A stretch of 64,000 bases of DNA from Thermodesulfobacteriota bacterium (GTDB taxonomy: Bacteria; DASVDK01), in the NCBI GenBank assembly GCA_036381125.1, contig DASVDK010000177.1:6104-70103 (forward strand), written 5' to 3'. Below are positions 3,589 through 30,898 of the stretch, piece by piece (position 1 is the first letter of the stretch; each line of letters starts with the position of its first letter). Both the position numbers and the translations under genes were made by a program. The notes under the pieces are model-generated. The model was not told the origin of the DNA and did not search any database. It saw only the letters and a program-made list of their open reading frames with translations.

Positions 3589-4469
3589 GGCGCCTCCCGG
3601 CGCGCCATCGCCTCGGGGCGCCAGAGGCAGAGCGCCACGAGCGCGGCGCCGATGACCATCAGCCGGAGCGCGGCGAGCTGGACCCCGTCGATCCCCGGCA
3701 GGTAGTCCTTGAGGAAGCGGGTGCCCTCGAGGATGACCGCCACGACGACGGCGCCGAGGACGGTGCGGGCGTGGCTGCCGCCGCCGGCCGCCAGGACGGC
3801 CACGAGGACGAAGACGCTCACCTGCGCGGTGAACATCTCGGGCGCGATGTAGCGCAGGTAGTGGACGTAGAGGCTCCCCCCGAGGCCCGCGGCCGCGGCG
3901 CCGAGCACGAACGCCTGGGCCTTCAGGCGAAGCACCGACTTGCCGACCGCCTGCGGAACGACCTCGTCCTCCCGGACGGCTCGTAGCAGCCGGCCGATCG
4001 GCGCGCGGGTGATCCGGCTGAAGACCCAGCCGGTGACGGCGAGGGCGGCGACGGTGAGCGCGGCGTACGCGGCGGTGTACGCGCCGTCGGGCACGACCCC
4101 CCGCAAGGGCTGGGGGAGGTCCACGAGGCCGCGGGCGCCGCCCCCGATCCAGGCCTCGTTGAGCAGGACCAGGCGGATCGCCTCGCTGAAGCCGAGCGTG
4201 ACGATGGCCAGGTAGTCCTCGCGAAGCCTGGGGGTCACGGCGACCAGGAGGACGCTCGATGCCCCGGCGGCGGCCGCCGCCGCGGGGATCGCGAACCAGA
4301 ACGGCCACCCGGCCAGCGCGAGAAGCGCCGAGGTGTAGGCGCCGATCGCCATGAAGCCGACCTGACCCAGGTTGACGAGCCCGGTCTCGCCCCACTGGAG
4401 GTTGAGGCCGAGGGCGACGACGGCGTAGATGGCGGTGAAGGTGACGATGGCGATGGCGTACTCGAGCAT
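3585..4469 (-). CDS. livM: branched-chain amino acid ABC permease (LivM-like)
   Basis: A 294 aa polytopic membrane protein. Position in the liv operon supports the call. Confidence 0.85.
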   Translation of the reverse strand: MLEYAIAIVTFTAIYAVVALGLNLQWGETGLVNLGQVGFMAIGAYTSALLALAGWPFWFAIPAAAAAAGASSVLLVAVTPRLREDYLAIVTLGFSEAIRLVLLNEAWIGGGARGLVDLPQPLRGVVPDGAYTAAYAALTVAALAVTGWVFSRITRAPIGRLLRAVREDEVVPQAVGKSVLRLKAQAFVLGAAAAGLGGSLYVHYLRYIAPEMFTAQVSVFVLVAVLAAGGGSHARTVLGAVVVAVILEGTRFLKDYLPGIDGVQLAALRLMVIGAALVALCLWRPEAMARREAP

Positions 4470-4472
4470 CGC

Positions 4473-5342
4473 CTACCGCCCCGACGGTCTGGCGCGGCCG
4501 AGGAGGCCAGACGGGCGCCAGAGGAGGATGGCCGCGAGGATGACGAACGCCACGAGGTTCTTGTACGTGGCGGGCAAGAGGAGCGTGCTCCACTCCTGCG
4601 CGAGCCCGACGATCAGGGCGCCGACGAGGGCGCCGCTCAGGCTGCCGAGGCCGCCGAGGACGGCGACGGCGAAGACCGGCAGCAGGAGGTTCCACCCCAT
4701 GAGCGGCGACACGACGGTCTCCAGCGCCAGGAGCCCGCCCGCGACGCCGGCCAGGATCCCCGTGGCGAACCAGACGATCCGGGCCACCCGCTCGGCGTCG
4801 ATGCCGGAGGCCAGCGCCACTTCCGGGTTGTCGGCCGTGGCCCGGATCGCCTTGCCGATCCGCGTGCGCGCGAGCAGCAGGTGGCCGACGACGAGCAGGA
4901 CGACGGAGACGCCGACCATCACGAGCTGATAGGGCCCGATCCTGAGCCCGAGGACCTCGAGCGGCCGGAGCACCGGCAGGTCGAACGCCCGCATCCGATT
5001 GCCCGCGACGAACCGCACCGCGTTCTGCAGGATGAACATGACCCCGATCGACATGAGCAGGGGCGGGAGCGGGCCGTAGCGGCGCACGCGCCGGAAGAGG
5101 CCCTGGTCGAGCCCCGTGGCGAGCGCGCCGACGAGCAGGCCGGCGCCGCCCACGGCGAGCGGCAGCGGAACGCCGACGACCTGGAGCGCGACGGCGACGT
5201 ACGCGCCGACCATGACCAGCTCCGCAATGGCGAAGTTGGGGTAGTGGAGCAGGCCGTAGACGAGCGTCAGCGCCGAGGCCGGCAGCGCGAGGATGCTGGC
5301 CGAGACGAGGCCGTAGAGGGCGTACTGGGCGAGGAGGTCCAT
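4473..5342 (-). CDS. livH: branched-chain amino acid ABC permease (LivH-like)
   Basis: The C-terminal part of the 950 aa track ORF starts MDLLAQYALYGL... and is hydrophobic. ATG inferred at 5342. Confidence 0.85.
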   Translation of the reverse strand: MDLLAQYALYGLVSASILALPASALTLVYGLLHYPNFAIAELVMVGAYVAVALQVVGVPLPLAVGGAGLLVGALATGLDQGLFRRVRRYGPLPPLLMSIGVMFILQNAVRFVAGNRMRAFDLPVLRPLEVLGLRIGPYQLVMVGVSVVLLVVGHLLLARTRIGKAIRATADNPEVALASGIDAERVARIVWFATGILAGVAGGLLALETVVSPLMGWNLLLPVFAVAVLGGLGSLSGALVGALIVGLAQEWSTLLLPATYKNLVAFVILAAILLWRPSGLLGRARPSGR

Positions 5343-13415: not shown

Positions 13416-13685
13416 GGCGGGGCTCCTTCCTCGTATCGGGGGCGCGGCCTGCACGACCGCGCCGCGTGATCTCCTGCGCGGGAGCGAGAGCAGGAGCCGT
13501 GCCGGTCCCGGTGCGCGGGGCGGGAGACGGTCGAAAAGGGACGTGCGGACGAGGAGTTGCGGAGATGTCGCCGGTGCGGCCCGGCCGCGGCGACCGCGCC
13601 GCGGCCGGCGGCGTGCTTCACGCTGCAACGCGAGTGCTCCAGATCGGATCAGGGGAGCCCGATCCGGATCGCCGACGGCGAGCCG

Positions 13686-14105
13686 CTACCGCGCGGCGTA
13701 CCGGCGGGCGAGGTGGCCGGCGAGCATGCCGAGCGCGTAGAGGAGGCTCGAGGCGCTCCACCAGAAGACGAGCCCCCCGATCCAGAACGTGGCGCCCGCG
13801 TCCTCGGGGACGCGCGCGGCGGCGCTCCCCGGGTCGAGCATCGCCGGCACGAAGCGGAACGCGACGAGGACCAGGGAGGCGCCCCAGCCGAAGCCGAGGA
13901 CCTCCCGGAACGTGCGCAGGCGGATGCCGAAGGCGAGGACGACCAGCAGGCGCGGCGCGAGGATCGCCGCCGCACCGGCTCCGAGCGGGTAGAGCACCTG
14001 CTCGCCGAGGACGATGGCCGCGGCCAGGGCGGCGAGGCTCGCGAGGAACCAGCCGACCGGGAAGGGGGCCTCCGGGGGGGGCGCGCCCCCGGTCGGACCG
14101 GACAC
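13686..14105 (-). CDS. small hypothetical membrane protein (about 139 aa, 4 predicted TM)
   Basis: Hydrophobic ORF whose GTG start abuts the ilvD stop (taGTG). Only this part of the 262 aa track ORF avoids overlapping ilvD. Confidence 0.45.
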   Translation of the reverse strand: MSGPTGGAPPPEAPFPVGWFLASLAALAAAIVLGEQVLYPLGAGAAAILAPRLLVVLAFGIRLRTFREVLGFGWGASLVLVAFRFVPAMLDPGSAAARVPEDAGATFWIGGLVFWWSASSLLYALGMLAGHLARRYAAR

Positions 14106-15784
14106 TAGCCGGTCACCGCCCCTTCGGACGCGGACGACACGAGCTTCGCGTACTTCGCGAGCACGCCGGTCGTGTACATCGGCTTCGGCGGCTTCACCGC
14201 CTTGAGGCGGCGCTTGAGCTCGGCGGCGGAGAGCTCCACGTCGAGCCGCCGCTTCTTGATGTCGATCGCGATGACGTCGCCGTTCCTGATCGCGGCGATC
14301 GGTCCCCCGTCGGCCGCCTCGGGCGCCACGTGGGCGATCATGAAGCCGTGCGTGGCCCCGGAGAAGCGTCCGTCGGTGATGAGGGCGACCGAGCCGCCGA
14401 GGCCGGCCCCCTGCAGGGCGGCGGTCACGTGCAGCATCTCGCGCATGCCGGGGCCTCCCTTCGGCCCCTCCCACCGGATGACGACCACGTCACCCGGCTT
14501 GATCTTGCCCGCCTTCACCGCCGCGAAGGCGTCCTCCTCGCGCTCGAAGACGCGGGCGGGGCCGCGGTGGGCGTCGCGGCTCTGGCCCGAGACCTTCGCC
14601 ACGCACCCGTCGGGGGCGAGGTTGCCCCTGAGGATGACGAGGCCGCCGTAGCTCTTGAGCGGCTGGTCGACGGGGCGGATGACCGTCTGCCCCTCGGGCT
14701 CGCGCGCCGCGCGCGCCTCCTCGCCGATCGTCCGGCCCGTGACCGTCTTCTCGTCGGGGTGGAGGAGGCCCGCCTCGAGCAGGCGCTTCGCCACGACCGC
14801 CATGCCGCCCGCCTCGTACATCTCCGGCGCGGTGTAGCGGCCCCACGGCTTCATGTCGGCGAGGACCGGCACCTTGCGGGCGATGCGGTCGAAGTCGTCG
14901 ATGGAGAGCCTGACGCCCGCTTCGCGCGCGACGGCGAGGAGGTGCAGGACGGCGTTCGTGGAGCCGCCGGTCGCCATCACGCCGGCGATCGCGTTGAAGA
15001 GCGCCTTGCGGGTGATGATCTGCCGCGGGAGCAGGCCGCTCCTCAGCACCTCCATCATGATCCGACCGGTCTCGAACGCCGCGCCGCCCTTGTCCTTGTG
15101 GAGCGCGGGGACGCCGTTGGCGCCCATGGGCGACACGCCGAGCATCTCGAACGCGGTCGCCATCGTGTTGGCCGTGAACTGGCCGCCGCACGCCCCGGCG
15201 CCGGGGCAGGCCCGGCTCTCGATCTCGCCGAGTTCGCAGGCGTCGATCCGCTTCGCGTTGTACGACCCGATCGCCTCGAAGACGTCCTGGATCGTGAGCC
15301 GCCGGTCCTTGTACTCCCCGTACATGATCGAGCCGCCGTAGAGCAGGACCGACGGGATGTTCAGGCGCGCCATGGCCATGGCCATGCCCGGGATGGTCTT
15401 GTCGCAGCCGGCGATGCCGACGAACCCGTCGAGCCCGTGACCACGCACCACCAGCTCCACGGAGTCGGCGACCAGCTCCCGGCTGACGAGGGACGCCTTC
15501 ATCGCCTGGGTACCCATGGAGATGGCGTCGTTCACCGAGATCGTGTTGAACTCGATCGGCGTGCCGCCGTTCGCGCGGATGCCGTCCTTCACCTTCTCGG
15601 CCACCGCCCGGTGGTTGAAGTTGCAGGGGGCGATCTCGATCCAGCAGTGCGCGACCCCCACCAGGGGCTTGCGGAGGTCGTCGTCGGTGAAGCCGATCGC
15701 CTTGAACATGGCTCGGGCGGCCGCGCGGTCCGCGCCGTCGAGCAGGACACGGCTCTTGTGCCGGGCGTCGAAGGCCACGGTCAC
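14105..15784 (-). CDS. ilvD: dihydroxy-acid dehydratase
   Basis: 559 aa with the CPGAGACGG Fe-S cluster motif. Full-length and recognised as IlvD along its whole length. Confidence 0.95.
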   Translation of the reverse strand: MTVAFDARHKSRVLLDGADRAAARAMFKAIGFTDDDLRKPLVGVAHCWIEIAPCNFNHRAVAEKVKDGIRANGGTPIEFNTISVNDAISMGTQAMKASLVSRELVADSVELVVRGHGLDGFVGIAGCDKTIPGMAMAMARLNIPSVLLYGGSIMYGEYKDRRLTIQDVFEAIGSYNAKRIDACELGEIESRACPGAGACGGQFTANTMATAFEMLGVSPMGANGVPALHKDKGGAAFETGRIMMEVLRSGLLPRQIITRKALFNAIAGVMATGGSTNAVLHLLAVAREAGVRLSIDDFDRIARKVPVLADMKPWGRYTAPEMYEAGGMAVVAKRLLEAGLLHPDEKTVTGRTIGEEARAAREPEGQTVIRPVDQPLKSYGGLVILRGNLAPDGCVAKVSGQSRDAHRGPARVFEREEDAFAAVKAGKIKPGDVVVIRWEGPKGGPGMREMLHVTAALQGAGLGGSVALITDGRFSGATHGFMIAHVAPEAADGGPIAAIRNGDVIAIDIKKRRLDVELSAAELKRRLKAVKPPKPMYTTGVLAKYAKLVSSASEGAVTG

Positions 15785-15847
15785 ACCTCCCGTCGTGAGA
15801 AATGGTGGCTGCGGGGAAAACGCCGGAATTCTAGCACCAGGCGGGGC

Positions 15848-16774
15848 TCACGCGACGCTCGCCGGGTCGGTGTTGCCGCCGCAGACGAGGACGGCCACCC
15901 GCTCGCCGGCGCCCGGCCGGTAGGCCCCCGACGTCACGGCGGCCAGCGCCGCGGCGCCGCCCGGCTCCGCCACCACCCGGAGCGCCTCCCAGAGGGCGCG
16001 CTGGGCGGCGCGGATCGCCTCGTCGTCGACGAGCACCACCCGCTCGACGTGCGCCCGGGCCAGCGCGAACGCGAGGTCACCAACGCGCCTGGCGCCGAGG
16101 CTGTCGGCCGCGATCCCGCCCACCTCCACGTCCACCGGCCTGCCCACCGCCAGCGCCGCGTGCAGGGTTGGGGCCCGGACCGGCTCGACCCCGATCACGC
16201 GCACCCGGCCGGCGAACCAGGCGGCGGCGCCCGCGACGAGGCCGCCGCCCCCGACGGCGACGACCACCGTGTCGAGCCCGCCGGCCTGCCGGTCGAGTTC
16301 TCGGAACAGGGTCCCCTGGCCGGCCACGACCTCCGGCTGGTCGTAGGCGTGGACCACCAGGGCGCCGCTCTCCGCGGCCCGCCGGTCGGAGGCGGCCTTG
16401 GCGTCGGCGTAGGTCGCGCCGGTGACCGTCACGGCCGCGCCGTAGCGCCGGAGCCGCTCGACCTTCACGGGCGAGGCGACCTCCGGGACGAAGATCTCCG
16501 CCCGGTGGCCGAGCACGCGGGCCGCCCAGGCCACGGCCGCGCCGTGGTTTCCGCCGGAGGCGGCGATGACGCCGGCCGCCGGCACCTCGGCCGAGAGGAT
16601 CCGGTTCAGGGCGCCGCGCGGCTTGAAGGAGCCGGTGTGCTGGAGCGACTCGAGCTTGAGGACGAGCGGCGCGGCCGCGCCCAGGGCCCCTCCCTCCAGC
16701 GCGATCACGGGGGTCTCGCGCACGCGGCCGGCGATGCGATGCGCGGCCGCGTCGATGGCGTCTCGATCGACCAT
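15848..16774 (-). CDS. PLP-dependent threonine/serine dehydratase
   Basis: PLP lysine motif in ESLQHTGSFKPRGAL, plus the GGGGLVAG glycine loop. Confidence 0.85.
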   Translation of the reverse strand: MVDRDAIDAAAHRIAGRVRETPVIALEGGALGAAAPLVLKLESLQHTGSFKPRGALNRILSAEVPAAGVIAASGGNHGAAVAWAARVLGHRAEIFVPEVASPVKVERLRRYGAAVTVTGATYADAKAASDRRAAESGALVVHAYDQPEVVAGQGTLFRELDRQAGGLDTVVVAVGGGGLVAGAAAWFAGRVRVIGVEPVRAPTLHAALAVGRPVDVEVGGIAADSLGARRVGDLAFALARAHVERVVLVDDEAIRAAQRALWEALRVVAEPGGAAALAAVTSGAYRPGAGERVAVLVCGGNTDPASVA

Positions 16775-16838
16775 GCGGCTAGCCTAGCGCGGGTTCGGCC
16801 TGCTAGACTCCGCCACCGCGCGCCCGAGGAGGAGGACC

Positions 16839-17645
16839 ATGGTCGAACTCTGTCGCCGCATCGCCGAACATCCGGCGTTCCAGCACGTGATCCTGGTGGT
16901 CATCCTCGTCAACGCCGTCGTGATCGGCTTCGAGACGTCGCCCGCGGTCATGGCCCGGTGGGGCGGGTTCCTGCTCGGGCTCGGCACGGCGATCCAGGCG
17001 CTCTTCGTCGTGGAGATCCTCGTTCGCCTCGTCGCCTACTGGCCGCGGCTCGGCCGCTTCTTCACCGACGGCTGGAACGTCTTCGACTTCCTCGTCGTCG
17101 CGATCTCGCTCGCGCCGCAGGCCGGCCCGTTCTCGACCGTGGTCAGGCTCGCGCGGGTGCTGCGCGTCGCGCGCCTGCTGTCGGTGGTGCCGGAGCTGCG
17201 GCTCATCATCGGCACGATGCTCCGCTCGATCCCCTCCATGGGGCACGTGATCGCGCTCCTGTCGCTCCTCCTGTACATCTACGCCGTCGTCGGCTTCTAC
17301 CTCTTCGGCCGTCACGACCCGTCCCACTGGGGTTCGCTCTCGCAGGCCTTCCTCACTCTCTTCCAGATGCTCACGCTCGAGGGGTGGGTGGAGATCCAGG
17401 CGACCAGCATGGAGGCGGTGCCGCTCGCCTGGATCTACTACGCGAGCTTCGTCGTGGTCGCGGTCTTCGTCGTGATCAACCTGTTCATCGCGGTCGTCCT
17501 CAACAACCTCGAGCGGGCGAAGGACGAGGAGCAGGCGGAAGCCGACCGCAAGAGCCCGCAGGGCGCGCTCATCGAGCAGGTCGAGCGGCTCAAGGCCGAG
17601 CTCGCGCGGCTCGAGCGGGACCTGAGGGCGTCGGGGAGGTCCTGA
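16839..17645 (+). CDS. bacterial voltage-gated ion channel (BacNaV/NaChBac family), selectivity filter TLEGWVE
   Basis: 6TM architecture. S4 sensor VRLARVLRVARLL has Arg at every third position. The pore helix and filter read FQMLTLEGWVEIQ, and a C-terminal coiled-coil is present (ERLKAELARLERDLRA). Confidence 0.85.
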   Translation: MVELCRRIAEHPAFQHVILVVILVNAVVIGFETSPAVMARWGGFLLGLGTAIQALFVVEILVRLVAYWPRLGRFFTDGWNVFDFLVVAISLAPQAGPFSTVVRLARVLRVARLLSVVPELRLIIGTMLRSIPSMGHVIALLSLLLYIYAVVGFYLFGRHDPSHWGSLSQAFLTLFQMLTLEGWVEIQATSMEAVPLAWIYYASFVVVAVFVVINLFIAVVLNNLERAKDEEQAEADRKSPQGALIEQVERLKAELARLERDLRASGRS

Positions 17646-17826
17646 CTCCGGGGGGCGCGCTCGCCTCGTCCTCGTCGGCGAGGCGTTCCGTGCGATGCAG
17701 GCCCGTCGCTTCCGGGCGTCGGCGCTCCGATCTCCGGATGATGGCCCGTCAGTCACGCGGCCCGAGATCACCGATCTCCGCGACCCGGCGCCCGTCGTCG
17801 TGCGGGTGGAGAGCCCCCCGAGGGAT

Positions 17827-18084
17827 TTACCGGTCGCGATCGGTCGCCGGGCGCAGGTCGCTCGGGTACGTCGCCACGCGCTTGCGTTCCGCGCGGGACG
17901 GGGCGCCGGAGCCGTCGCTCTCGCCGTTCACCGTCTTGCCGGCCGGCATGGCCAGGGGCGAGGGGGCGGCGGTCTCGATTACCATGCGCCGGTCCCGGGC
18001 GATCTCCTCGATGGGCCTGGCGGCGGCAGGCGTGGCGGCGATGGCCGCGAGCGCGACGGCAAGCGCGACGAACGGGGTCTTCAT
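17827..18084 (-). CDS. small secreted protein, paralog B (85 aa)
   Basis: Signal peptide MKTPFVALAVALAAIAATPAAA. The core PLAMPAGKTVNGESDGSGAPSRAE aligns with paralog A. ATG inferred at 18084 inside the 143 aa track ORF. Confidence 0.6.
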   Translation of the reverse strand: MKTPFVALAVALAAIAATPAAARPIEEIARDRRMVIETAAPSPLAMPAGKTVNGESDGSGAPSRAERKRVATYPSDLRPATDRDR

Positions 18085-18530
18085 GGCGGCGGTCCTCGGG
18101 GAGGTACGCCCGCCCGGGGAGCATGCTTCGTGCCGGGGCGGGCAGTCACGCAAGAAATCGAAGAGAGACGGCCGCTTACGTGACACTCCTGTGAGGATCG
18201 CGGACTTCCCGCTGCGGCACGGCATTGCGAAACGGAACGACGCCCGCTCCACATGCAACAGAGCCTCGGCCCTCCGAATCGGAGCCTGCGTCGATCAGGG
18301 GCGGAAGCGCTGTACATTGGAGCCTCGCGAAGGTCCACATGGGACGATCGGAGTGACCGTATGGCCTGCGAGACGCCTTTCGTGCCCGCTTCTGGGGGCT
18401 CGTGTGCGATCGCTGGCGCGCGTGGAGCATCGGAGAAGCGCCCGTGTCCCTCTCCGAACTGGATCCCGAGATCGTCGCCGAACACGGTCCCGTGAATGCC
18501 AGCTTGCCGAGGCTCGTCCAGGCGCGGCCG

Positions 18531-19118
18531 CTACCCGGCCTGGAGGAGCCGCACGGCCCGCCCTTCTCGTGCGATCCGCCCCTCGGCCTCGAGCGCGGCG
18601 AGGGTCCGGTAGAGCGCTTCGTGCGTGAGGCCGATCTCGGCCGCGACCTGCTTGAGCGGACGATCGCCGCCGATCGCGCCGCGCGGGGCCAGGGCGAGGT
18701 ACTGGAGGACGCGCGCCCGCGCCGATCGGACGTTGCGCAGCTCGAGGCGCGCACGGAGCACCTGGATCTGCGCCGCCATCTGCCGCATGAAGCCTTCGGC
18801 GACCTCCGGGTCCGCGCGCAGGGCGCGCCTCACGGCCGCCCGGGGCAGCACCGCGACGCGCGAGGGGACCTCGGCCACGGCGTCGCAGTGGTAGCGGTCG
18901 GAGAAGAGCGCCGCCTCGGCGAACGTCTCGCCCGGGCGAGCCACGTGCACCGTCACGCCGACCCCCTCGCTCGTGTGCCGGACGAGCAGCACCCGCCCCG
19001 CCTCGACCACGAAGATCGCGGTCGTCGCGTACCCCTGTCGGAAGAGGGCTTCTCCGGCCGCGAGGTCGCGCCGCCGCGCGGAGTCGAGGAGCGCGGCGAA
19101 GGGGTCGGCCGCCGTCAT
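18531..19118 (-). CDS. Crp/Fnr-family transcriptional regulator
   Basis: cNMP-binding domain followed by a C-terminal HTH (QVAAEIGLTHEALYRTLAALEAEG). ATG at 19118 overlaps the stop of the upstream decarboxylase (ATGA). Confidence 0.8.
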   Translation of the reverse strand: MTAADPFAALLDSARRRDLAAGEALFRQGYATTAIFVVEAGRVLLVRHTSEGVGVTVHVARPGETFAEAALFSDRYHCDAVAEVPSRVAVLPRAAVRRALRADPEVAEGFMRQMAAQIQVLRARLELRNVRSARARVLQYLALAPRGAIGGDRPLKQVAAEIGLTHEALYRTLAALEAEGRIAREGRAVRLLQAG

Positions 19119-19891
19119 GCGGCCGGCAGGGACAGGACGGCGCCGCGGGCCACGCCGAAGGCGTCGAGGTGACCGGTCACCGTCCGCCCGGGGTCGAGCA
19201 GGTGGACGTGGATCCGCTCGCCCGGGTGGCTGATGACCCCCTCGAGCGCCGCGCCGGAATGGAAGCCCACCAGGTCGGCCGCCATCCGATCGCCCCGCCG
19301 GACGACCCGGGCCGCGGCGGCGTGCCTGCCGCGACCGCCGTGCCCACCTCGGCCGCCGTGCCCGCCGCCCGGCGGCTCGCCGGGACCGGCCAGCACGTGC
19401 CAGGCGTAGCCGGTGACGACGCCCCGCACGAGGAAGGGGAAGGGGCGGGAAACGTCGATGCCGCGGCGCCCCGCCGTCGCGGCGACCGCCGCCTCGAGCG
19501 CGGGCATGGAGGCGAGGTCGGCCTCGACCGGCTCCGCCGTCCAGCGGTCCACCCGGGCGGTCACGAGGAGGGCCGCCTCGGCGTCGCGAGGCGCCGGCAC
19601 GATCCTGCCGTCGGCTCGCCGACCGTAGCTCACGAAGAGGCGGCTCCCCTCCGCGGTCACCTCGCCCTCGAGGCCCGCCAGGGCGCCGACGGCGTAGACG
19701 CCGGGCGCGGCGACCGCATCGGCGAGCCTCACCCGCCCGGCGACGGCGCCGTCGCGCATCATCCGCTCGAAGTGGCCGTAGACGCGGATGTCGAAGGGCA
19801 GGTCGTCGGCGGCGCGGGCGAGGCGGGGCGGCGCCGCGAGGCTGCCGGCGGCCACGGCGAGGAGCGTGCGGCGAGTGAGCCGAGCGCGCAT
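19115..19891 (-). CDS. alpha-acetolactate decarboxylase family protein with a Tat signal and a Gly/His/Arg-rich insert
   Basis: Twin-arginine motif TRRTLLAVAAGSLAAP…ARA. ALDC-like blocks GVYAVGALAGLEGEVTAEGSRLFVSYG and ADLVGFHSGAALEGVISHPGERIHVHLLD. A strong SD GGGAGGAT sits 5 nt before the ATG at 19891. Confidence 0.7.
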   Translation of the reverse strand: MRARLTRRTLLAVAAGSLAAPPRLARAADDLPFDIRVYGHFERMMRDGAVAGRVRLADAVAAPGVYAVGALAGLEGEVTAEGSRLFVSYGRRADGRIVPAPRDAEAALLVTARVDRWTAEPVEADLASMPALEAAVAATAGRRGIDVSRPFPFLVRGVVTGYAWHVLAGPGEPPGGGHGGRGGHGGRGRHAAAARVVRRGDRMAADLVGFHSGAALEGVISHPGERIHVHLLDPGRTVTGHLDAFGVARGAVLSLPAA

Positions 19892-19948
19892 GGGGTATCC
19901 TCCCGGTGCGGGTCCGCCGGCCACTCTGCCGCGGGCCGTCCGGCTCGC

Positions 19949-19966
19949 ATATGATCCGGATCATAT
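19949..19966. promoter_or_regulatory. perfect 18-bp palindrome ATATGATCCGGATCATAT (FNR/CRP-like TGAT-N4-ATCA box)
   Basis: Seen directly. Its centre lies about 66 nt upstream of the decarboxylase ATG, and a Crp/Fnr regulator gene is the second gene of the same operon. Confidence 0.55.
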
Positions 19967-20293
19967 CATCCGGCGGAGGTCGGCGCGGCCAGCGCCCTGG
20001 GAGTGGACGTGTCCGAGCGGATGCTGGCGCGTGCGAAGGCGGAGACCCGGGACGCGGCGATCTCGTATATCAGGGCCGACCTGGAGGGCCTTCTGGGCAG
20101 GGTCCACGCGGCGCTTGCGCCCGGCGGCCATCTGCTCTTCTCGGTCGAGCACCCGATCGTTACCGCGCCCACCGATCCAGGCTGGTCGGTCGATGCCGCG
20201 AGACGCGCGGCGTGGCCCGTCCGCGGGTACCCCGACGAGGGCCCCCGTCGCACGGATTGGCTCGTGGCGTGCCGCTGTTCGACCTACCGGTAG
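19955..20293 (+). pseudogene. 5'-truncated class I SAM-dependent methyltransferase remnant
   Basis: The frame reads …GVDVSERMLARAKAETRDAAISYIRADLEGL…LAPGGHLLFSVEHP… (post-I and motif II regions). The GxGxG motif I is missing because an in-frame stop lies at 19952-19954. Confidence 0.5.
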
Positions 20294-21072
20294 CCGGTCG
20301 CGTCCGCCGGTCTGCCGGCCTCCTGAACCTCCCGGATGTAGCGCCAGCAGTCCGGTTGCGATCCGTCGAGGTCGGTGAAGCCGTAGACCTTCGCGAGCCC
20401 GCCGCTCGAGAGCGACTGTCCCGTCCAGCGGGCCTTCTGCGGGTCGGCGGCGAGCGCGGCGACGGCGCGTCCGACGAAGCGCGGGGACTCGGAGATCACG
20501 AAGTGGGGCGACCTGGCCGTGGCGTCGCGCCAGTTCTCCTCGGTGACGCCGTAGGTGTCGAGCATCATCTCGGAGCGCATCCACCCCGGCGTGATCGACA
20601 CCGCCGTGGCGCCGTGGCGCGCGAGGTCCCTGGCGTGCGCCCAGGCCATCCGTATGGCGGCGACCTTGGCGAGGTCGTAGAAGACCGACAGGCGGTAGTG
20701 GTCCGCGTTGTACTCCGCCGTGCCGCCGGTCACCTCGACCATGAGGCCGCCGGGGTTCGCGATTCGAACAGGCGTTCGCCGCCCCAGATGTCGTTCACCA
20801 GGACGTCGAGCCGTCCCGTTCCGTCCGGATTCGCGCGACCAGCGCTTCGACCTCGCTCGGGACGAGATGGTCGACGCGAACCGCGATGCCCTCGCCGCCG
20901 GCCCCGGTGACCAACGCCGCGGTCTCCTCGATGGTCTCGGGACGGCCGTACTCCGACATCTGGCTTCGGGTGGTGCGGCCGGTCACGTAGACCGTGGCGC
21001 CTGCCGCGCCGAGCTCGATCGCGATTCCGCGCCCCGCGTCGCGCCGGCGACGAGCGCCACCTTTCCCTCGAG
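20284..21072 (-). pseudogene. SDR-family oxidoreductase disrupted by frameshifts and an internal deletion
   Basis: The N-terminus MRSLEGKVALVAGATRGAG reads in one frame. …GRGIAIELGAAGATVYVTGR…RIRTERDG reads in a second. RLDVLVNDIWGGERLFE reads in a third. …GGLMVEVTGGTAEYNADHYRLSVFYDLAKVAAIRMAW… is in yet another frame. About 40 expected residues between WGGERLFE and PGGL are missing. Confidence 0.55.
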
Positions 21073-21263
21073 CGATCGCATCCGTTCGCCCCGATCTCGC
21101 GCGCGTGTCGCGCGCGGCCTCCGTGACCTGCCCCCCGGCTCGGACGTCTCCGGGCGCCCGGGTCTCCTGGGTGCAGGGTGGCGCCGGCGGGCCGGGCGGC
21201 CAACGCACGCGGCGCCTGCGACGGGCCCCCGCGCCGGTCGAGGACCTGACCTGGTCCCCGGAC

Positions 21264-29185: not shown

Positions 29186-30898
29186 ATGTTCATCCCCAAG
29201 CTCGTGGTCACCTTGCGGGAGGGGTACACCCGCGCCCAGTTCACGTCCGACGTCGTCGCCGGGGTCATCGTCGGCATCGTCGCGCTGCCGCTCGCGATGG
29301 CGTTCGCCATCGCCTCCGGCGTGCCGCCCGAGCGCGGCCTCTACACGGCCATCGTGGCGGGGTTCCTCATCTCGGCGCTCGGCGGCAGCCGGGTGCAGAT
29401 CGGCGGGCCGACCGGCGCCTTCGTCGTGATCGTCGGCGCCATCGTCCACCAGTACGGCTACACGGGGCTCGCCGTCGCCACGTTCATGGCCGGCCTGGTG
29501 CTGATCGGCATGGGCATCGCGCGGCTCGGCGGCACCATCAAGTTCATCCCCTTCCCCGTGACGACCGGCTTCACCTCCGGGATCGCCGTCATCATCTTCT
29601 CCTCGCAGATCAAGGACCTCCTCGGGCTCCGGATGGCCGAGGTCCCGCTCGAGTTCGTCGAGAAGTGGGAGGCCTACTGGGCGAACCTCGCGACCGTTTC
29701 CTGGCCGACCGCGGCGCTCTCGGCCGGGTGCCTCGCCCTGATCCTGCTGTGGCCGAGGGTCACCCGGCGGATACCGGGCGCGGTGGTCGTGCTCGTGGTC
29801 GCGACCGCCGCGTCGGCGGCCCTCGGGCTGCCGGTGGAGACGATCGGCTCGCGATTCGGGCAGATCCCGCACGGGCTCCCCGAGCCCGAGGTGCCCGCCA
29901 TCGGGGTGACCGAGGTCCTCGACCTCGTCGGGCCGGCGCTCACCATCGCCATGCTGGCCGCGATCGAGTCGCTCCTCTCGGCCGTCGTGGCCGACGGCAT
30001 GATCGGCGGCCGCCACAAGTCGAACATGGAGCTGGTGGCCCAGGGCGTGGCCAACATCGCGTCGCCGATCTTCGGCGGCATCCCCGCCACGGGGGCCATC
30101 GCCCGCACCGCCACCAACGTGAAGAACGGGGCGCGGACGCCGGTGGCCGGAATCGTGCACGCGCTGACGCTCCTGCTCATCCTCGTCGCCTTCGGCGGGC
30201 TCGCGAAGTACGTGCCGCTCGCCGCGCTCGCCGCCATCCTCGTCGTGGTGTCGTACAACATGAGCGAGTGGCGCTCGTTCCGGGCGCTCCTGCGCGGGCC
30301 GAGGAGCGACGTCGCGGTCCTCCTGGCCACCTTCGGCCTCACGGTCCTCGTGGACCTCACGGTCGCCGTGGCGGTCGGCATGGTCCTCGCGGCCTTCCTC
30401 TTCATGAAGCGGATGGCGGACGTGACGGACATCCACGCGATCACCAAGGAGTTCCGCGAGGCCGACGACCTGAACGGCGCCGACCCGATGTCGATCGAGA
30501 AGCGGACGGTACCGAAGGAGGTCGAGGTCTACGAGGTGAACGGGCCCTTCTTCTTCGGCGTGGCCGACCGGGTGAAGGACATCCTGTCGGTCATCGGCAC
30601 GCCGCCGCGGGTCTTCATCCTGCGCATGCGCAACGTGCCGGCCATGGACGCGACCGGGATGAACGCCCTCATGGACCTCCACGCCAAGTGCGTGCGCCAG
30701 GGCACGACGCTCATCCTGTCGGGCATCCACGCCCAGCCGCTCGTCGCGCTCGAGAAGTCGGGCAACGTCGAGCGGATCGGCCGCGAGAACCTCGCCGCCG
30801 ACATCGACGCGGCGCTCGCCCGCGCCCGCGACATCCTCGAGGGGCGGGTCCCCGAGGTCGCCGCCCGCGCGCCCGCCGCCGCGCCGACGCACCGGTAG
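29186..30898 (+). CDS. SulP-family sulfate/anion permease with C-terminal STAS domain
   Basis: MFIPKLVVTLREGYTRAQFTSDVVAGVIVGIVALPLAMAFAIASGV… followed by a STAS domain. SD aggaagg. Start is internal to the 646 aa track ORF. Confidence 0.85.
   Translation: MFIPKLVVTLREGYTRAQFTSDVVAGVIVGIVALPLAMAFAIASGVPPERGLYTAIVAGFLISALGGSRVQIGGPTGAFVVIVGAIVHQYGYTGLAVATFMAGLVLIGMGIARLGGTIKFIPFPVTTGFTSGIAVIIFSSQIKDLLGLRMAEVPLEFVEKWEAYWANLATVSWPTAALSAGCLALILLWPRVTRRIPGAVVVLVVATAASAALGLPVETIGSRFGQIPHGLPEPEVPAIGVTEVLDLVGPALTIAMLAAIESLLSAVVADGMIGGRHKSNMELVAQGVANIASPIFGGIPATGAIARTATNVKNGARTPVAGIVHALTLLLILVAFGGLAKYVPLAALAAILVVVSYNMSEWRSFRALLRGPRSDVAVLLATFGLTVLVDLTVAVAVGMVLAAFLFMKRMADVTDIHAITKEFREADDLNGADPMSIEKRTVPKEVEVYEVNGPFFFGVADRVKDILSVIGTPPRVFILRMRNVPAMDATGMNALMDLHAKCVRQGTTLILSGIHAQPLVALEKSGNVERIGRENLAADIDAALARARDILEGRVPEVAARAPAAAPTHR

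Follow-up and report, generated by a model that had tools for sequence, protein, structure and literature searches.

Which protein would recognize a perfect inverted repeat that stands just upstream of a two-gene operon, and what would its binding do? We address this question for a 64,000-nucleotide stretch of DNA from an uncultured Thermodesulfobacteriota bacterium (GenBank assembly GCA_036381125.1, contig DASVDK010000177.1, positions 6,104 to 70,103 of the forward strand; hereafter the window), in which the 18-bp palindrome ATATGATCCGGATCATAT occupies positions 19949-19966. The minus-strand operon beside it encodes a predicted secreted protein related to alpha-acetolactate decarboxylase (ALDC), followed by a Crp/Fnr-family regulator, the gene for which is called crp below. 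We propose that the palindrome is probably the operator of this co-operonic regulator, with class II activation and positive autoregulation as its most likely mode of action. That a Crp/Fnr-type site serves an operon containing its own regulator, and that the unit is therefore autoregulated, is strongly supported. The unit comprises these parts (L numbers designate loci of the comparison).

19949..19966 (core 19950-19965), unstranded: predicted operator of the Crp-family regulator, from its uniqueness, its matrix score and its conservation in L002, L129 and ~90 further loci
19898..19904, minus strand: Shine-Dalgarno sequence GGGAGGA, 6 nt before the ATG, read from the sequence and kept in L002 and L129
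19115..19891, minus strand: ALDC-fold protein of 258 aa, the operon's first gene, from weak PF03306/TIGR01252 matches, a family of 44 homologues and a PDB profile match
18531..19118, minus strand: Crp/Fnr-family regulator of 195 aa with a cNMP (cyclic nucleotide)-binding-like domain and a Crp-type helix-turn-helix, from PF00027, PF13545 and a subfamily signature

The palindrome and the regulator that would read it

The palindrome has a 16-bp core, TATGAT-CCGG-ATCATA (19950-19965), and its center at 19957.5 lies 66.5 nt 5' of the A of the minus-strand ATG at 19891. Scans of the source genome covered the 64-kb window, where no second copy was found at up to three mismatches; 100 dinucleotide-preserving shuffles contained no match, and the inner TGAT-N4-ATCA occurs once in the 64 kb against 0.11 occurrences expected. 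On a position weight matrix built from 94 family sites, the palindrome scores 34.3 and the runner-up position of the window 9.6. Neither this matrix scan nor a search of the window for ATGA-N6-TCAT with at most one mismatch revealed a comparable second site, and the other ATGA-N6-TCAT in the window, at 30659, scores just 3.1. These results bear out a preliminary description of the locus, which had reported a perfect 18-bp palindrome centered about 66 nt 5' of an ATG led by a Shine-Dalgarno sequence and had proposed the search for further copies. Conservation in orthologous loci, on which that description had let the significance of the site depend, is likewise found, in L002, in L129 and in many others.

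Two sets of loci were compared. The first, anchored on the ALDC-like gene, drew on contigs encoding homologues and on a scan of one genome per species, which together gave ~40 loci. In the closest relative, L002/L007, the ALDC-like protein is 87% identical, the ALDC-then-crp gene order is the same and the palindrome reads TATGATCGCGGTCATA, 63.5 nt from the ATG; the counterpart in L129 is ATATGATCCGGATCATCT. In the more distant L005, crp is divergent from the ALDC-like gene and TATGACTGCAATCATA lies 65.5 nt from the ATG. By tblastn, a Crp homologue adjoins the ALDC-like gene in ~20 loci, and the shared upstream region of every ALDC locus with such a neighbor contains YATGAY-N4-RTCATR, with 0-2 mismatches to TATGA-N6-TCATA. 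By contrast, the best match among ALDC loci without a Crp neighbor has two mismatches to TATGA-N6-TCATA (most have at least three), and none stands at the promoter position. The one near-match in these Crp-less loci, in L035, lies at the end of its contig, so that any adjoining crp would have been lost.

The second set, anchored on the regulator, combined 80 loci from a metagenome scan with protein alignment and three genome contigs, for a total of 83 loci and 299 kb. Here, 78 sites were found in 70 of the 83 loci, against 0.48 expected from shuffles, and these occupy one of two places: 22-62 nt ahead of the crp start codon, or just past its stop codon and before the downstream gene. ATGA/TCAT is invariant in 41 independent sites and nearly so in 19 ALDC-linked sites. 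In both sets, the position that is T in FNR boxes and G in CRP boxes is always A, save for one G (L023).

The strongest argument that the neighboring regulator, rather than another protein, reads the site comes from covariation between protein and DNA. Arg180 of CRP has as its counterpart the first specificity residue of the recognition helix, which is His in the window regulator. Across 76 loci, regulators with a His helix have T as the outer base (TATGAT) in 76/82 half-sites, whereas those with an Arg helix have C, or G on the other strand (CATGAT), in 40/60 (Fisher p = 3e-15, in a test without phylogenetic correction). The window, with a His regulator and TATGAT in both half-sites, fits the His-T rule. 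A parallel exists in HcpR, in which the residue at the CRP R180 position sets box specificity within the family (PMC545781).

These comparisons also bear on which other proteins might bind the palindrome. First, a global, oxygen-sensing FNR from another part of the genome could bind the site as an FNR box, as each half-site matches TTGAT-N4-ATCAA at 4/5 positions. However, the discriminating T is replaced by the conserved A, the site accompanies the gene for the local regulator in different phyla, and its outer base changes with the helix of that regulator, which itself has one Cys and no FNR cluster; we regard a global FNR as very improbable. The FNR flavor given to the box in the preliminary description did not hold up. 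The box resembles that of CRP equally (TATGA-N6-TCATA versus TGTGA-N6-TCACA) and matches neither consensus. Second, a NikR-type nickel repressor could bind. The half-site is the same as that of the Escherichia coli NikR box GTATGA-N16-TCATAC, with GTATGAT-[N13/14]-ATCATAC quoted in PMC545781, and the targets and neighbors of the subfamily in other loci have a metal flavor. Nevertheless, the TATGA cores are spaced by N6 rather than N16, which is unfit for a NikR tetramer, and the site goes together with a Crp-family gene and varies in step with the helix that this gene encodes, leaving NikR with almost no probability.

Promoter geometry and the direction of control

When sequences are aligned on the palindrome center and oriented toward the target gene, a second element appears at a fixed distance. 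In the 19 ALDC-linked loci this is an A-rich element ending in T (nAnAnT-like), from +31 to +35/36 relative to the center, and in an independent set of 41 non-identical loci with crp, site and target, it is a clear TAnnnT hexamer starting at +30 or +31. Start codons of the targets peak 63-70 nt from the center, with a mode of 66. In the window, this geometry leads to two further features.

19923..19928 (+30 to +35 from the center), minus strand: predicted -10 hexamer CAGAGT, from the placement of the element across loci
19915..19917, minus strand: predicted transcription start, which would put the palindrome center at about -41.5 and leave a leader of ~25 nt, from the position of the -10 hexamer

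The hexamer at the same place is CAGACT in L002 and CAGAGT in L129. A -35-like hexamer is missing both from the window, where positions +7 to +12 read TATGCG, and from the family alignment, and a scan of the window region found no sigma-70 consensus promoter, a result that fits an activator-dependent promoter and is not evidence of absence. Taking the hexamer as a -10 box places the center of the site at -41.5 or -42.5, the class II position at which activators of the CRP/FNR type take the place of the -35 box.

We propose the following model. A dimer of the regulator would bind the half-sites TATGAT and ATCATA through the helix T-H-E-A-L-Y-R, with the invariant TGA core read by the Glu and Arg at the CRP E181 and R185 positions and the outer T by the His that corresponds to CRP R180. 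Seated ~41.5 bp upstream of the start, the regulator would stand in for the -35 element and recruit RNA polymerase. The transcript, beginning near 19916, would then carry a 25-nt leader with a strong ribosome-binding site, the secreted ALDC-fold protein and, finally, the regulator. The start of the regulator open reading frame (ORF) overlaps the stop codon of the ALDC-like ORF in an ATGA (19891-19115 and 19118-18531), just as the preliminary description had it, and this overlap could couple translation of the regulator to that of the ALDC-like gene. With the regulator encoded in the transcript that it would activate, the circuit would be one of positive feedback.

Alternatively, the same regulator could act at the same site as a repressor, with binding at the -35 region blocking RNA polymerase until a ligand releases it, in which case autoregulation would be negative. 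Crp/Fnr-family proteins can repress where a site overlaps promoter elements, as discussed for HcpR (PMC545781), and where crp is divergent, its start codon or 5' end overlaps with the site, an arrangement that resembles autorepression. In contrast, the promoter of the window has no recognizable -35 hexamer and so looks activator-dependent, and the spacing to the -10 element is fixed at the classic -41.5/-42.5 over ~60 loci, a constraint expected for activation. We assign repression a small but real chance. Because activation is likelier and crp lies in the same transcript, we favor positive autoregulation.

Loci in which crp diverges from its target (L021 2816-2818, L039, L025 1201-1203, L029, L030 and others) have a geometry of their own. 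Their first in-frame crp ATG lies inside or abuts the left half of the palindrome (CATGAT or CATATGAT), and the opposite half-site, TATGAT, would sit at the -10 place of a leaderless or near-leaderless crp mRNA. This arrangement may be a built-in autorepression device, in which the same site represses crp. We also considered, and rejected, the idea that the palindrome is nothing more than a pair of divergent -10 boxes: the window, L002 and L129 keep both halves although their crp is not divergent, and the identity of the outer base follows that of the helix residue.

Several points weigh against an operator that works by activation. Support for the operator is comparative throughout, and it is from such comparisons that we infer binding, activation over repression and the transcription start. 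Arg-type loci still have T in 19/60 half-sites, and the covariation statistic ignores phylogeny. The -10 element carries modest information in GC-rich loci, its register shifts by 1 nt, and in many divergent loci the TATGAT half may double as the crp -10 box. Moreover, a site at -41.5 also permits repression. On the other side of the balance, conservation, co-occurrence, covariation and promoter geometry all uphold the core of the preliminary description, that of an autoregulated unit with a Crp/Fnr-type site.

Products, possible signal and surroundings of the unit

The product of the first gene is a remote ALDC-fold relative, predicted to be secreted, and not a demonstrated decarboxylase. Its scores lie below the cut-offs of both Pfam (PF03306, 23.1 bits versus 25) and NCBIfam (TIGR01252, 16.8 bits versus 180.65), and the name 'acetolactate decarboxylase' used in the preliminary description was thus too strong. 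Many relatives have a precomputed PF03306 match. Each of the 44 homologues in the family starts with a signal-like sequence and has a variable loop rich in His and Gly, which in the window protein is GGHGGRGGHGGRGRH. A profile of the family matches ALDC structures in the PDB (E = 7.5e-9). E77, H228, H230 and H241 are invariant (the three His across 30 aligned sequences), the GE motif and the HxH...GH triad are kept, and H228/H230/H241 align with the H-x-H...GH zinc triad of the PDB ALDCs. Acetolactate synthase and butanediol genes were not found near the ALDC-like gene, whose neighbors are the Crp regulator, a SoxH-like metallo-beta-lactamase (MBL) protein, transporters and similar genes.

The window protein starts with MRARLTRRTLLAVAAGSLAAPPRLARA; in this sequence a twin-arginine pattern, T-R-R-x-L-L, precedes a hydrophobic region and AxA (LTRRTLLAVAAGSLAAPPRLARA). 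The Tat export put forward in the preliminary description therefore stands as a sequence pattern, from which export is predicted. The close relative P0001 has SRRALL, and most other members of the family have no RR and look Sec-type.

Two observations concern this gene in other loci. The usual partner of the ALDC-like gene in Burkholderiales and Reyranella is a gene for a secreted, SoxH-related MBL-fold protein (~19 loci; for example, L028 1986-2915 and L031 about 3650-4598), which scores 160 bits on TIGR04559, below the cut-off, and in which the usual HxHxDH motif reads GGQDHR; the pair looks like a conserved two-protein periplasmic module. In L129 (GCA_040960765.1, contig JBFOMR010007776.1, 4903-5004), the ALDC-like gene has shrunk to an in-frame remnant of 33 aa, MRARLTRRTL...GVARGAVLSLPAA, in which the signal peptide runs straight into the final 13 residues. 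This locus still has the palindrome, together with the -10-like hexamer, the ribosome-binding site and crp.

The regulator has the same sequence as P0045, a protein listed by NCBI as a 'Crp/Fnr family transcriptional regulator' and taken from a metagenome-assembled genome labelled Thermodesulfobacteriota. It scores 65.6 bits on PF00027 (cut-off 27.5) and 21.7 bits on PF13545, below the cut-off of that model but spanning the helix-turn-helix. Its best NCBIfam match is FtrB (52.8 bits versus a cut-off of 211), and its PDB sequence matches are all Crp/Fnr-family proteins. It has >2,370 homologues at E <= 1e-10, and the best 120 all share a sensor motif, AEA(A/S)LF-x-x-YHCDA, and a helix, (T/S)-(H/R/Q/P)-E-A-(L/F)-Y-R; in the window regulator these read AEAALFSDRYHCDA and THEALYR. 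The Glu and Arg of the helix, at the CRP E181 and R185 positions, are invariant in the subfamily. The equally invariant YHCD motif is located at the phosphate-binding position of the ligand pocket, and it contains the sole Cys of the window regulator, C78.

Two familiar identities were rejected for this protein. FNR proper has a [4Fe-4S] cysteine set (three N-terminal and one central), an E--SR helix and T in its box, whereas the window regulator has one Cys, an E--YR helix and A in its box; aligned with E. coli FNR, it has no N-terminal extension and no FNR Cys cluster. These features exclude oxygen sensing of the FNR type and hence that form of the oxygen- or redox-responsive unit suggested in the preliminary description. 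Some Cys-based or metal-based sensing may still operate. CRP proper was rejected on the grounds that the R82/S83 contacts to the cAMP phosphate align with His/Cys, that the box has A for G, and that the NCBIfam CRP model gives 27.9 bits versus 266. No second Crp paralogue was found in the window.

The subfamily's targets elsewhere provide some indication of its role. The genes directly behind the site in other loci encode ~36 secreted Met/His-rich proteins, ~10 LTXXQ/Spy-like periplasmic proteins, 3 cytochrome c'-like proteins, 2 ChrA transporters, SnoaL-like proteins and ALDC-like proteins; none of the usual targets (Met/His-rich protein, LTXXQ protein, cytochrome c', ChrA or SnoaL) was found elsewhere in the window. 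The commonest target is a secreted protein of ~200-235 aa with a Met/His-rich N-terminal stretch (L088 about 3620-4310, L125, L068 and L131 3592-4275 = WP_200991955.1) and a conserved domain, PGQDAFGAIQEIVRMLEADP...GLGFIG...HHQxHHLAMAKG. Searches of Pfam, NCBIfam and PDB sequences returned no match for this protein, an uncharacterized family that possibly binds metal. A ChrA-type chromate transporter is a divergent target of the box twice (L045 2698-3912 and L050) and also stands beside an ALDC-like gene that has no Crp neighbor (L003 3226-4395), which hints at a place for chromate or oxyanion stress in this functional neighborhood. On plasmid pC6.5d of Rhizobium rhizogenes C6.5, the corresponding pair, JL024_RS00190 with JL024_RS00195, is flanked on one side by an RND efflux pump and on the other by a metal-sensing repressor that stands beside a HupE/UreJ gene.

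The target set and the neighbors on pC6.5d point weakly to envelope or metal stress as the signal, a guess in which we have low confidence. More broadly, a possible though doubtful scenario is that a large branch of the Crp/Fnr family (>2,000 homologues with the YHCD motif and the YATGAT-N4-ATCATR box) senses a metal, thiol-reactive or haem-binding signal through a His/Cys/Asp site and, as a response to metal stress in the envelope, induces secreted His/Met-rich proteins, including a repurposed periplasmic ALDC-fold protein. The Crp/Fnr family is known for sensing based on cyclic nucleotides, Fe-S clusters, haem and 2-oxoglutarate. To our knowledge, direct sensing of a signal of the proposed kind by a His/Cys/Asp site has not so far been described in this family; if the scenario is true, such sensing would be a chemistry new to it.

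In the searchable literature on Crp/Fnr regulators tied to LTXXQ proteins, chromate or ChrA, methionine-rich periplasmic proteins or the half-sites, we found nothing on this subfamily. As far as that literature shows, its proposed box, specificity rule, sensor signature and secreted target set appear to be new. Loci of this kind are at present annotated as a 'Crp/Fnr family transcriptional regulator' beside a 'hypothetical protein'. The analysis replaces an anonymous palindrome by a regulatory model open to testing, in which the regulator is named, the site has a consensus, and a promoter and a feedback loop are predicted. It also gives a widespread subfamily its box (YATGAT-N4-ATCATR), a specificity rule (His-T, Arg-C:G), a geometry and a first regulon sketch. 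The subfamily is present in cultured Rhizobium (plasmids NZ_MK318989.1 and CP140861.1), making its signal and targets testable at the bench.

The conserved DNA ends at the palindrome. By blastn, the window and L002 are collinear except for window 19968-21254 versus L002 4592-4927, and it is precisely at 19967, the outer edge of the palindrome, that the similarity sets in again, to continue as far as the ATG. Two features of the window lie on the far side of this edge, outside the unit.

19967..20293, plus strand: remnant of a class I methyltransferase dependent on S-adenosylmethionine (SAM), by tblastn
20284..21100, minus strand: decayed short-chain dehydrogenase/reductase (SDR) gene of the PRK08303 type, between an ABC transporter gene and the methyltransferase remnant, by profile matches

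By tblastn, the methyltransferase remnant is 41-50% identical to plasmid-borne methyltransferase genes. Against a full-length protein of 243 aa it spans roughly residues 64-191, is interrupted by a gap of ~25 residues and lacks both the N-terminal SAM motif and the C-terminal end; searches of Pfam and NCBIfam found no match even at E = 1. It begins at the outer edge of the palindrome, in agreement with the earlier claim that the palindrome marks the point of truncation. The SDR gene matches profile positions 17-93, 93-115 and 154-305 in three reading frames, with 116-153 absent. It is either a pseudogene or broken by assembly indels; the neighboring ALDC-like, crp and ABC-transporter genes are intact. 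Beyond the same edge, L002 has fragments of a gene for an MBL-fold protein, and L129 has that gene intact and divergent from the palindrome. On the simplest reading, selection reaches no farther upstream than the palindrome, and the sequence past it is free to decay or rearrange.

This setting also invites a non-regulatory explanation, in which the palindrome would be a chance repeat, a scar of recombination or insertion, the end of a mobile element, or an RNA hairpin or terminator. The palindrome does sit exactly at a synteny breakpoint beside two decayed genes, and in many related loci it directly follows the crp stop codon, a place for a terminator. However, base identities and not just pairing are conserved in ~100 loci of different classes. 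There is no T-tract and a terminator scan was negative; the RNA folds no better than shuffled sequences (z = -1.04), with the palindrome not self-paired in the minimum-energy fold; Rfam gave no match; and a mobile-element end would be expected to recur, whereas the window holds no second copy. An explanation of this type is, in our view, almost certainly wrong, and an operator of the neighboring regulator remains the preferred reading.

Two observations apply to gene calls around the unit. Downstream of crp, at 17827-18060 on the minus strand, a small ORF with a signal-peptide-like start, MKTPFVALAVALAAIAATPAAARP..., has no family match; it is a candidate gene only and may or may not belong to the operon. 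At ~72-80% G+C, the window contains very long spurious ORFs on both strands (for example, 13466-18628, 1,720 aa), and for this reason ORF length alone is no evidence for a gene here.

Comparison with known systems

For the first gene, the closest known system is alpha-acetolactate decarboxylase itself (BudA/AlsD, PF03306). The similarity is remote but extends over nearly the full length, with the HxH...GH zinc triad and the GE motif common to both. In contrast to BudA/AlsD, the window protein adds a signal peptide and a His/Gly-rich insert and scores below the Pfam and NCBIfam cut-offs. In addition, the Arg of the ALDC HTRTV motif, which has a catalytic role, aligns with a nearly invariant His (HMMER alignment).

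A Crp/Fnr-type factor with a palindromic box at -41.5 is a textbook arrangement, exemplified by E. coli CRP in its class II mode (TGTGA-N6-TCACA at -41.5). The protein architecture, the 5+6+5 layout and the TGA/TCA core are the same, Glu and Arg are kept at E181/R185, and the inferred position relative to the -10 element is the same. By contrast, the box of the subfamily is TATGA or CATGA and not TGTGA, the window regulator has His for R180, and R82/S83 are replaced by His/Cys. FNR, FixK and Dnr (TTGAT-N4-ATCAA), which are usually class II activators, have in common with the window system the inner TGAT-N4-ATCA and the protein fold, and the DNR structure 3dkw is a PDB sequence match (E = 3.9e-11). 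Unlike these proteins, the window regulator has a single Cys, no N-terminal Cys cluster and an E--YR helix, and its box 5-mer begins with A rather than T; its scores also fall far below the FixK and FtrB model cut-offs.

With respect to sensing, CooA, a haem-based CO sensor with Cys75 and His77 in its effector domain, offers a possible parallel. This Crp-family protein uses neighboring His and Cys residues of the effector domain instead of a nucleotide, a feature that the subfamily may share, whereas the order and position of the motif differ, with YHCD standing at the position of the phosphate-binding cassette. The CooA box is TGTCA-N6-CGACA (PMC545781, Table 10). Finally, HcpR was approached along the same line of evidence, namely a regulator beside its target, a palindromic box and a specificity that tracks the residue at the CRP R180 position (PMC545781). 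The box and the sensor signature are other than those described here, and HcpR targets hcp/frdX, in contrast to the secreted His/Met-rich proteins that lie behind the sites of this subfamily.

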